This document shows positions 19,317 through 22,984 of a stretch of DNA of 64,000 bases, one piece after another (position 1 is the first letter of the stretch; the number at the start of each line of letters is the position of its first letter). The stretch spans positions 310,062,001-310,126,000 of the forward strand of contig OZ024740.1 in the NCBI GenBank assembly GCA_964016885.1, in the 5' to 3' direction. Source of the DNA: Eledone cirrhosa (Eukaryota). A program made the position numbers and the translations under genes. The notes under the pieces were generated by a model that was given only the letters and a program-made list of their open reading frames with translations, was not told the origin of the DNA and searched no databases.

Positions 19317-19573
19317 ATATATACTTATAAGTATATAAGTATGTATACGTACATACATATATGTATACAGACGTACAGTAGTATATATATATATATATAT
19401 ATATATACATATATATATATATATATACATTCATGCACACATATATATATGTACGCATGGATTCACGGAACATTTATTATAATGCTCGGTGTGTTTGTAA
19501 ACAAACATCCCGAATTAAGCTGTACAGTGTCTAGCAACCATCGTTACTCATGTGTTCAACACTGACAAAGGAA

Positions 19574-19614
19574 CGCTGTACTAGTTTCAAGCTTATTAGC
19601 TATCGTCAGCAACG
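19574..19614 (-). ncRNA. Minimal type I hammerhead ribozyme, intact core, GUA
   Basis: CGUUG-CUGACGA-uAGCUaauaAGCUu-GAAA-CUAG-UA-CAGCG; palindromic CUAG in place of helix III. Confidence 0.85.
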
Positions 19615-20296
19615 TATACCTTCCTGCCAGATGGTTGAACGTCTGAAAGTATATACTTTCCTTATGCATATTTACGGCTGAGCAACCTAATTTGCATATC
19701 GAGTGAGTTAATCGGCCGGGGTACCGAAAACGATAAACGGAAAAAATGAAACGAAATTTTATTTCTCACTCTTAGTACGGCTGTTAATGAAATATAAGTA
19801 TGTATACGTACATACATATATGTATACAGACGTACAGTAGTATGTATATATATATATATATACATACATGCACACATATATATATATGTACGCATGGATT
19901 CACCGAACATGTATTATGCGTACATATATATATATGTATGCATGTATATATATATATATATATATATATATATATATATATATATATGTGTGTGCATGTA
20001 TATATATATATATATATATATATATATATATATATATATAAATATAAGTATGTATACGTACATACATATATGTATACATACGTACAGTGGTATGTATATA
20101 CATACATGCATATATATATATATATATATATATATATATATATATATATATATATATATATATATATATATGTACGTATGGGTTTACAGAACATTTATGA
20201 TAATGCTCGGTTTGTTTGTAAACAAACAGCCCGAATTATTACCCGTACAGTGTTCGGCAACCATCGTTGCCCTTTTGTTCCACACTGACAATGGAA

Positions 20297-20337
20297 CGAT
20301 GATCTAGTTTCTAGCTTATTAGCTGTCATCAGCACTG
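20297..20337 (-). ncRNA. Minimal hammerhead copy, cleavage site degenerate
   Basis: CUGAUGA-cAGCUaauaAGCUa-GAAA-CUAG-AU-cauc. Confidence 0.6.
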
Positions 20338-22984
20338 TATACCTTCCTGTCAGTTGATTGAACGTTTGAAAGTATATACTTTCCTAATGCATATTAACGG
20401 CTGAGCAGCCTAATTTGCATATCCAGTGACTTAGTCGGCCGTGCGTACCGAAACCGATAAATGGAAAAAATAAAAATATCATTTCTCACTCTTAGTACGG
20501 CTGATACTTAAATATATGTATGTATACATATATGTATGTACATATATGTATGTACATATACAGACGTACTAAGTATCAGCTGTACTAAGAGTGAGAAATG
20601 AAATGTCATTCTCTCTCTCTCTCTCTCTCTCTCTCTCTCTCTCTCTCTCTCTCTATATATATATATATATATATATATATATATATATATATATATATAT
20701 ATATATATATATATATATATATATATATATATGTATATATATATATATATATATATATATATATATATATATATATATATATATTAATACACAAATATAT
20801 TCAGAAACGAAATATATTATATATATTAAATACTATTAAAGGAATAATGAAAGATAAATTATGTTTTTCACATGTTTTCAGTCAATTAATTAGTTTACCA
20901 ATAATATTTCTCAATCGGATTAATTGACGTTACGTGTGAAAATATTATTGAAATAAGACCACAATACCCATTTTATCTCTGATATTGCAAATATTTATGT
21001 TGGTTTGAACGACACCCATTAAGAATTCATCTGATAAACATACTGGCATATTATATATAATAACACTTGTAATTTCTGACAGTTTTAAAGAGACATTAAG
21101 ACCCTCTTAAAATTACACCACAATCAATGCAAAATGCATCATCCATCACAGATCATCCATCTTCAGATGAATCCATTCATTCGAATCCATTCTTGTCCTG
21201 AGCTTTCCATACATTCGTAGTCACAATGTATTTTCTTCTTTTCACTAATCCATTAAATGGAAGACAAATGCATAGAGGATATATAATGACTTAAATGTGT
21301 AAATATTTCACCAATCGCTCGCATACATAGAGAAAATTGTAACATCAATTATAATTTTACATCTCTACTTCTGATGTGCTATCGACATTAACTGCAGCAT
21401 CAACACTATTTCTCCCTTGTGATTGTCAAAAGAATGAATAATATATTATACATGAATTAAAATGTGGCGCGTATAACATCAATGCTTGTAGAAAAGTCAC
21501 AATCAATCAATATTCCATCGATTGATAAACAAATTATATAAAGAGAGCATATTCATTAAGAATCCAATGACACGTATATATTCCTTCACCGATTTAGAAA
21601 CCATTGTGTAGGAAACTTTTAATAACAAAATACATCATCGGAGACAGAAACCATCGACTGCCTACAAGCAGATCTCGTAAGATCTCGTAAGATCTCGTAA
21701 GATTAACTAGTGATGATTCATATAATTTTAAACCACTGGCAGATGTTCGTCAACATTTGATATTCCACATGCAATCATCTGGATACATACAAGAGGGTGA
21801 AGTTGGGGTTTATACGGGAGAAAATAGACAGTTCGAAGTCATAATGCAAATAATAGCAGAGTGAATGAAATCTTCAAGTTGTATGAATGTTCTTGATATT
21901 TTGATACATAATTCATAGACAATGATTACGTTGATTATTTAAATTTTGTCTTGGAGTTTATTCTGCATTGCGATTCTTTCATGGATATCTCTCGAACCCC
22001 TTTTCTAAAAAAGAGTTTGTTAGATGTGTCTTTGATCCAGTTCCATATAAAAAAAATGTTCTGATAATGAAAGTGTTCTCGTGTGCAATTAGAGGTTGGT
22101 GTGTTTAGTCACACCCTCAATCTCAGCAAATATACAAATCTTGCAAGGTCACCACCCAGCTTTCAAATGGTGTCATATTTTATTGCAGAGATTTATGTCC
22201 TGACCAAACTGAAATTACAGGCGATCCTTTTGTTTCAAGGCTAAATGGATTCACACCAAAACTGAAGAATTCTTTATTTTCCCTCACATTTCAACCAAAC
22301 TGGGTTGCTGAGCAGTACATGTGCAGAAGCTATCTGCATCTTTCTTTTTACAATCTTGATAAGGTTACGCCAAATCTTACTCTTTTCGCTTTGCCAGGCT
22401 GACCAATGAGCCTACATGGAAATTACTTCTAATCATTTAAAATCAGCAAGTTGACAGTTGCTTGCAATGACTCGTCCACTATTCTCTATATATTCGCCCC
22501 AAAACCTAAGCCCCAAACCACACTAACTTTCTATATCTCCACCCTCGCTCACACTATTTCTGTAACCTTCTCTAACTCTTTCTTTCCCTCTCGCTCCCTT
22601 TCTCTCTCACTCTTTTACTCTATTCCAATAATGGAAATATGCGAAAGTCGTGCCCATTTACCAGACGAGCAACATCTTTGAACTTACACATTATCGTCCA
22701 GCAATATCCCTATTCACACATCTCAGATAAAGGGAAAGAGTTATGGAGATCCAATGTGTTGGAGAATCCAACACATTCAACTCTCTCATTTTATCTCTTG
22801 TTCTCTCTCTCTCTCTCTTCCCTTCACACTTCTTCGTGAAGAAAAGTTCGGTATTTCTCGAGCTAGATTAATTATTGATATATTATCCTATGAGATTAAC
22901 TAATGGACTATCAGCCTTGAGAAATCTGATCGTCACTTCACCACTGTACACTTCTATCAAAATTGTTCCCCATATGAAACCATG

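Follow-up and report, generated by a model that had tools for sequence, protein, structure and literature searches.

Among the systems closest to the elements described here are the metazoan non-LTR retrozymes, for which both expression and RNA circles have been demonstrated (PMC7229834; bioRxiv 10.64898/2026.07.22.740005). The second of these sources also ties retrozymes to Penelope-like elements (PLEs), and it reports cleavage in one of nine Xenopus dimers. Rolling-circle copying by a PLE enzyme has been proposed (PMC4209133; PMC7229834), with RNA circles suggested as the templates for reverse transcription of more than one unit (PMC4209133). The latter paper also delimits a minimal hammerhead ribozyme (HHR), in which helix II comprises 7-8 bp and helix I 4-5 bp, and helix III and loop 3 are reduced or absent. 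For PLEs themselves, a tail and inversions are given as characteristic marks (PMC8557442). An Anolis PLE protein cuts and extends both strands in vitro, where two internal starts of reverse transcription bound the tail; according to the same account, HHR cleavage is dispensable in vitro and unprocessed RNA is the main template (PMC11167929).

The locus considered here is located in a stretch of 64,000 nucleotides from Eledone cirrhosa (assembly GCA_964016885.1, contig OZ024740.1, positions 310,062,001 to 310,126,000 of the forward strand), which is hereafter called the window and is numbered from its first letter. A preliminary description of this DNA proposed a retrozyme-like dimer, formed by two tandem units of ~330 bp that each carry a minimal HHR, and derived it from an ancestral unit that produced a ~0.7-kb RNA. 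The arrangement that we recognise differs from this proposal in several respects and is given below, where A1 and B denote subfamilies of one repeat family, PLE29 is a Penelope-like family of this genome, and E219 is an end that falls about 219 nt past the predicted cut.

19142..19324, minus strand: neighbour outside the element, a 183-nt 3' end of PLE29 with 97.8% identity to 31033-31215
19335..19917, minus strand: main arm of insertion 1, ~1.35 monomers of subfamily A1, with the short fixed 3' end (E219) at 19335
19573..19615, minus strand: HHR of insertion 1, with a 6-bp helix I, CUGACGA, U.U followed by a 4-bp helix II that ends in an AAUA loop, GAAA, a CUAG loop on a one-pair helix III, and an intact GUA site
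19794..19917, minus strand: purine-pyrimidine hairpin segment, rich in AU, from the next upstream monomer; the segment is also present at 19335-19460
19918..20039, plus strand: short inverted piece of the AU-rich segment, passing into the (TA)n tract between the insertions, with boundaries blurred by the repeat
20040..20560, minus strand: main arm of insertion 2, ~1.1 subfamily B monomers in which the internal (TA)n is expanded
20296..20338, minus strand: HHR of insertion 2, predicted to be inactive, with U16.1 changed to A at 20303 and A.C at helix I position 4
20570..20610, plus strand: inverted arm of insertion 2, which takes in the 'tail' that the two fixed ends delimit
20610..20784, no strand assigned: (TC)n(TA)n flank

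The cores of two co-oriented type I HHR motifs lie on the minus strand at 19609->19579 and 20332->20302, 723 nt apart. Both share one order of parts: helix I and CUGAYGA precede a 4-bp helix II capped by an AAUA loop, and GAAA then leads to the cut site by way of a CUAG loop that a single base pair closes. The palindromic CUAG pointed out in the preliminary description is present in each, where it forms loop III. In insertion 1, cleavage is predicted 3' of 19579, and an extended helix I, reaching about 19555-19637, is also predicted. The earlier view that both motifs are real and co-oriented stands, but the second is not intact as had been supposed, in that the HHR of insertion 2 reads GAU where its subfamily B reads GUU. 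Among 292 distinct HHR segments, it alone has A-A at 15.1/16.1, with A-U in 289 of them; conservation over these segments is partly built in, given that the search tolerated five mismatches. Each unit carries a type I HHR, which is broken in unit 2 of the window but intact in unit 1, as it is in the family.

Neither motif fits the label 'minimal' that had been attached to it. Helix I comprises 6 bp plus an extension, helix II 4 bp, and helix III one pair with a tetraloop, which by the definitions of PMC4209133 places the motif among the canonical metazoan HHRs, its helix III being weak. The suggestion that helix III depends on dimer formation agrees with modelling, wherein a double hammerhead built from two subfamily A copies (A+A) has a predicted energy of -19.4 kcal/mol, compared with -1.3 kcal/mol for the single fold. 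Rfam yields no match in the window at gathering score, and the HHR region alone folds only weakly better than shuffled versions (z of -0.6 to -2.3 for four sequences). Thus, the case for the HHR is made by its copy number and conservation.

A 33-nt pattern for this HHR has 11,528 exact matches in the 3.0-Gb genome, and a reversed control has none. The motif is therefore not a chance occurrence, and the size of the family can be set at no fewer than 11,528 HHR copies. Tandem arrays had been predicted from the locus, and a genome survey bears them out with 2,828 head-to-tail pairs at spacings of 412-442 nt, two arrays reaching some 50 and some 30 units. Short, dispersed copies form the majority. 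The monomer measures ~430 nt (420-442 nt) with a GC content of 35-39%, and the ~330-bp unit proposed earlier is only its non-microsatellite part. Approximately 100 nt of the monomer is an AU-rich purine-pyrimidine segment that is predicted to form a long hairpin. The 'microsatellite spacer' previously noted at the locus is indeed AU-rich, but it consists in part of the monomer's own hairpin and so is not all spacer. Four monomers are predicted to be strongly paired as circles (z of -6.0 to -8.9, compared with -7.0 for the linear form), although alternating palindromes inflate these scores. The junction that a circle would contain and the tandem junction in the genome are identical in sequence.

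The element in the window has no ORFs except frames that read through the microsatellite, as had been stated before, and the longest Met-ORF of the family has 51 aa (in an A2 dimer). A conserved small ORF was considered and rejected, as the 68-codon frame, although seen in A1 (29 of 45) and in some A2 units (22 of 86), occurs in none of 28 B units and none of 17 C units. With a type I HHR, tandem repeats and non-coding units of less than 50% GC, the family corresponds at the sequence level to what defines a non-LTR retrozyme, in keeping with the class originally assigned. We consequently describe it as a putative further member of the metazoan non-LTR retrozymes, a class that is already known, in which this ~430-nt family appears to be new. 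No description of the family, or of the paired use of two ends in retrozymes, was found in the largely open-access literature searched.

Alignment of 128 units, one of which was dropped, separates four groups, namely A1 (40 units), A2 (37), B (33) and C (17). Group B resolves cleanly as a clade (29 of 29 tips, support 0.976), which A1 and C do not. In the 292 HHR segments, helix I pair 3 is U.G in 180, G.U in 60, A-U in 36, C-G in 6 and something else in 10, and the base of helix II, which is usually G10.1-C11.1, is replaced by U.U in 244 and by C.A in 41. For 40 hand-picked rows, pairing is seen in 92.8% of cells, and the score for covariation exceeds that of every one of 500 shuffles; changes on both sides of a pair occur at two pairs in these rows, a count matched by 210 of the 500 shuffles, and covariation within the family is thus thin. 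Better evidence that the fold is selected comes from R2, a sister family of 465-468 nt with 68% similarity over 249 nt, because its helix I and II sequences differ around an unchanged core and CUAG loop. R2 makes up most of the first 100 among 5,669 matches.

Some arrays exhibit higher-order repeats, with a 4-mer in loci L172 and L173 and a 2-mer in L026 and L121, which indicates that duplication at the DNA level also shapes arrays. A dimer circle with one dead HHR was considered as the source of the alternating arrays. Locus L026, where both alternating changes sit in HHR helices, fits this idea and L121 does so partly. We make no such claim, however, because the 4-mer of L172/L173 shows that DNA duplication yields this kind of pattern.

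Copies of the family stop at two sites, about 219 nt (E219) and 275 nt (E275) past the predicted cut, with distances across the subfamilies of 212-220 and 273-286 nt. The result is two fixed 3' ends, ~56-61 nt apart, that are fused to (TA)n. We count 54 E219 and 37 E275 ends in 81 loci, a few false calls included. The inner ends of insertions are variable, and inversions are found there. The two arms of a head-to-head insertion end differently, one at E219 and the other at E275, in 35 of the 39 raw calls made over 112 loci (p of 1.5e-7 against random pairing), and in 32 of 35 once two duplicates and two short false calls are removed; the calls for L014 and L029 look doubtful. Among 29 head-to-head insertions, TA- or AT-rich sequence flanks both sides in 22, one side in five and neither side in two. 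TSDs, which in non-LTR retrozymes exceed 4 bp when present, are masked by (TA)n in 27 of these 29; the two insertions flanked on neither side, L002 and L025, show possible duplications of 8-13 nt. The tail, the tandem and inverted arms, and the AT-rich target are features of a non-autonomous element mobilised by a PLE, and all of them are present in this family.

The 3' part of one potential source of enzyme, PLE29, is found at 29017-31215 of the window. PLE29 is an autonomous PLE of this genome, with full frames of 1217 aa that include a CX4CXXC linker. It is abundant and young, as judged from 43,863 first-look candidates and from 95 that were scored, all of which reached at least 99%. Pfam matched none of the four PLE-like proteins of the window, and the Atlas clusters PLE29 with HTH_animal/GIY-YIG/RVT_1 at 0.95-0.97, which we treat as a lead only. 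The short and long ends of PLE29 on (TA)n fall 222 and 266/282 nt past its own predicted HHR cut. Neither blastn nor a profile of both retrozyme families found sequence similarity between the monomer and PLE29. Given that the ends match and that such similarity is absent, we consider PLE29 a candidate partner by geometry alone. A template switch from PLE29 to the retrozyme at 19324/19335 was rejected, because PLE29 3' pieces are found in 6 distinct loci of 90, with the locus of the window entered once, and their arrangement is not fixed; therefore, common targeting of (TA)n suffices to account for the adjacency.

Returning to the window, we hold with high confidence that the locus represents two separate insertions of a PLE-mobilised family. 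The two units are 13% divergent (81% identity, ungapped), with unit 1 lying 2.1% from the A1 majority and 9.3% from that of B, and unit 2 lying 4.0% from the B majority and 11.1% from that of A1. Moreover, the E219 end of insertion 2, at ~20040-20044, is fused to (TA)n and is distinct from the end of insertion 1 at 19335. The short terminal inversion mentioned in the preliminary description is confirmed as the inverted piece at 20570-20610, and it halts at a (TC)n run about 12 nt before the long end (E275). From co-oriented HHRs that are 723 nt apart and have a self-complementary loop III, one could imagine a single dimer of an ancestral ~0.7-kb unit, in which joint cleavage by the two HHRs freed a 0.7-kb AU-rich RNA. 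However, this spacing occurs at no other locus among those whose spacings were compared. Pairs in the family are spaced at 412-442 nt in 2,828 instances, and the same-strand gaps below 1 kb among the first 100 matches listed are all 420-453 nt (12 of 12). Unit 2 also lacks U16.1, and the mixed B+A double hammerhead has four mismatches, one dead site and a model energy of -7.5 kcal/mol, compared with -19.4 kcal/mol for A+A. Given the separate subfamilies, the separate 3' ends, the odd spacing and the mismatched B+A pair, we find the ancestral dimer scarcely credible. The 0.7-kb RNA is therefore an accident, a by-product of a single (TA)n neighbourhood that received two insertions and is also home to a PLE 3' end. 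Both insertions are probably inactive at present, and the locus would free no monomer because neither insertion carries two good HHRs. A link between the element and the region 20800-21500 was ruled out, as this region is single-copy.

Two further explanations concern the family as a whole. Its unit could be the pLTR or 3' end of an autonomous PLE that is seen as 5'-truncated copies, as might be argued from the PLE-type tail and inversions, from PLE coding fragments that lie within the stretch examined at 9 of 90 loci, and from the reported relationship of Xenopus retrozymes to pLTRs (bioRxiv 10.64898/2026.07.22.740005). Yet copies of the unit continue into another monomer rather than into an ORF. 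None of 224 flanks (112 loci) has a shared fixed continuation, as would be expected of a unit joined to an ORF for RT and GIY-YIG, and the flank clusters are other repeats in mixed orientation at both end types. In L061 and L069, both of which were read over their whole length, unit and ORF are set apart by a (TA)n tract. Blastn and the profile of both retrozyme families likewise found no kinship between the unit and the pLTRs of two PLE families compared with it, although a rare parent PLE may lie outside the sample. The preliminary description had set against itself a unit that is simply a pLTR and never forms arrays; what we find are 2,828 head-to-tail pairs and no flank that reaches shared ORF-bearing sequence, and we judge the pLTR explanation to be highly improbable. 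A DNA-level satellite, spread through unequal exchange or extrachromosomal DNA circles and carrying a fossil HHR, would agree with arrays of ~50 and ~30 units that contain higher-order repeats. This origin also seems very unlikely to us, since DNA exchange would not be expected to yield mostly short, dispersed copies that stop at two exact 3' sites on (TA)n and have arms joined head to head.

A more serious competitor differs from our preferred reading in the template alone. It invokes the same two-site insertion by a PLE, but the template is the uncut read-through transcript of a young homogeneous array, and the HHR is a passenger or serves another step. The fixed internal ends do not require a circle, because such ends are obtained in PMC11167929 on linear uncut RNA. 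That paper also reports that HHR mutants insert normally and that no reads end at the cut. Further points in favour of a linear template are the weak base pair of helix II, the availability of long arrays as possible sources, and the cleavage seen in only one of nine dimers in the 2026 preprint. In addition, old arrays have internal differences of 8-28 substitutions, the nearest neighbour of a monomer is an array mate in just 9 of 22 loci, and the higher-order repeats point to duplication of DNA, all of which count against a circle. The young insertions point the other way. Locus L176, in which an inversion separates four units from five and (TA)n bounds both sides, has 0-1 substitutions among seven full monomers across both arms, and the nearest other locus is three substitutions away. 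The corresponding values are 0-3 for the seven monomers of L177 (nearest other locus, 3), and 0 for L005 and L077 (nearest other locus, 11 and 10). For R2, the mean is 0.29 substitutions within insertions (333 pairs) compared with 13.8 between insertions (45 pairs, minimum 3), and locus L229 has 18 identical monomers spread over both arms. In the absence of a bottleneck of one monomer, differences within insertions should come near to those between insertions, which is at odds with the R2 values and with the young A2 insertions (0-3 against at least 3). No two of the 10 R2 loci, a tiny sample of thousands, are exact copies, and the HHR helices are kept across the subfamilies and in R2. On these grounds, we regard the linear template as unlikely, albeit worth keeping in mind. 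The homogeneity within insertions is the pattern of a one-monomer bottleneck followed by rolling; on sequence comparison, the near-identical monomers of young insertions thus favour, without proving, a circular template, and we consider this step of the proposal to be probable.

We assign a probability of about two in three to the reading in which the locus holds two independent insertions (A1 and B) of a ~430-nt hammerhead repeat that was likely pasted in trans by a PLE into (TA)n, likely from a circular RNA template. In the mechanism that we propose, read-through transcripts of arrays would fold double hammerheads by means of the self-complementary helix III and loop III, and would be cut to monomers that are then ligated into circles. 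A PLE reverse transcriptase and GIY-YIG endonuclease, likely acting as a dimer, would nick both strands of a (TA)n target. Reverse transcription would begin internally, on each strand at a site of its own, with 56-61 nt between the two sites. Each cDNA would continue rolling for 0.1 to 8 turns, after which the pair would join head to head, and the longest arrays would be built later through unequal exchange. With appropriate caution, we lean towards viewing the young insertions of the family and of R2 as footprints of rolling-circle reverse transcription, in which one circle, a PLE dimer and two start sites 56-61 nt apart would give rise to head-to-head concatemers of up to 20 identical units.

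The locus itself amounts to two decayed copies and is of little weight, and it is the family that matters more. The family is large, some of its subfamilies look very young, and it displays two marks of mechanism, these being the paired start sites and the near-identical concatemers. If our proposal is correct, it would confirm a step that was put forward in 2014 and 2020, and the tail and the inverted repeats would share one mechanism. It would also supply a natural template of ~430 nt for reconstitution, with PLE29 as the candidate enzyme. Together with an intact co-resident PLE, the family makes both the origin of the PLE tail and inversions and the use of a circle as template testable in vitro.

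In comparison with the metazoan non-LTR retrozymes as presented in PMC7229834 and bioRxiv 10.64898/2026.07.22.740005, the family is likewise a non-coding tandem repeat of a few hundred bases with a GC content of 35-39% and one type I HHR per unit. Like them, it ranges from monomers to long multimers, its predicted circle is strongly paired, and PLEs co-occur with it. Consecutive HHRs in tandem at ~150-450 bp, as described for such elements, are found in the family but not at the locus in the window. The monomer lies near the top of the 150-450 bp range given there for invertebrates. The family departs from the known retrozymes in its ~100-nt AU-rich hairpin and its insertion into (TA)n, and its two fixed internal 3' ends, one per head-to-head arm, are absent from the descriptions consulted.

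The hammerhead itself has parallels in what is reported of axolotl ribozymes, with a one-pair helix III and palindromic tetraloop as in HHR_Amex1, and a U.U at the base of helix II as in HHR_Amex2. With the minimal HHRs of PMC4209133 it shares a dimer-dependent design and a palindromic 15.2-16.2 region. It differs from them by a 6-bp helix I with a long extension, a 4-bp helix II, and a one-pair helix III with a tetraloop.

The resemblance to EN+ PLEs, as these are characterised in PMC8557442 and PMC11167929, includes tandem and inverted insertions, a tail at one end, an HHR upstream of the starts, and an AT-rich or (TA)n target. Unlike those elements, the family has no ORF, and its tail measures 56-61 nt rather than 30-40 bp. 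The start site in the in vitro reactions of PMC11167929 is alike on both strands, whereas the two arms of the family differ in 32 of 35 insertions. Finally, the ends of PLE29, at 222 and 266/282 nt past its cut, can be set beside those of the family at 212-220 and 273-286 nt.

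The array at loci L171-L173 (G000:C1:51.77-51.79 Mb) is a retrozyme becoming a satellite. This array of the main family holds about 50 monomers and has a near-perfect higher-order repeat of four monomers, and a second long array (L174-L175) comprises about 30. Monomers alternate in the arrays at L026 and L121, where the first resembles the third and the second the fourth; at L026, both alternating changes lie within helices of the hammerhead motif (HHR).

The sister retrozyme family R2 (L229-L238, e.g. G000:C1:30831000-30840999) has monomers of 465-468 nt and very young insertions. 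Its concatemers are arranged head-to-head, with at most 7 + 13 identical units, and have two fixed ends, on (TA)n. The R2 HHR carries a canonical G-C pair at the foot of helix II, and its site is GUU.

Hammerhead-like motifs and Penelope-like element (PLE)-type coding stretches in the window

17095-17155, +, hammerhead-like motif, within a 97-nt inverted repeat (16987-17188)
24953-24998, -, hammerhead-like motif
38188-38253, -, hammerhead-like motif
40881-40946, +, hammerhead-like motif
41792-41842, +, hammerhead-like motif
43123-43172, +, hammerhead-like motif
29017-31215, +, PLE29, an abundant young PLE (further loci L223-L228)
34078-36290, +, non-PLE29 family
38335-39513, +, non-PLE29 family
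31514-32409, -, non-PLE29 family
26553-27068, +, non-PLE29 family
17575-17823, -, non-PLE29 family

These six hammerhead-like motifs are unrelated in sequence to the main retrozyme family. The PLE family at 34078, with 83,568 first-look candidates, terminates in long TA/TG tracts, and the canonical HHR core was absent from 14 of the 15 3' regions examined. At 23606-24787 and 18100-19050 lie additional repeats whose units are arrayed both in tandem and as inversions (242-nt arms, 95%; direct pair of ~610 nt); these are probably more PLE-type insertions. From their translations, we take 11627-15259, 53334-56770, 57740-62163 and 1329-4618 to contain non-LTR retrotransposon-like ORFs and helicase/Helitron-like fragments.

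A decayed, coding-looking, single-copy stretch (20800-23000) includes one weak match to PLE29 (~21613-21852; tblastn, E 2e-4). The PLE29 pLTR contains an HHR-like core, and its 3' ends fall inside the first codons of the ORF. With an open frame of 1217 aa encoding RT plus a GIY-YIG at the C terminus, and with a CX4CXXC linker, PLE29 resembles Neptune by the description in PMC8557442.
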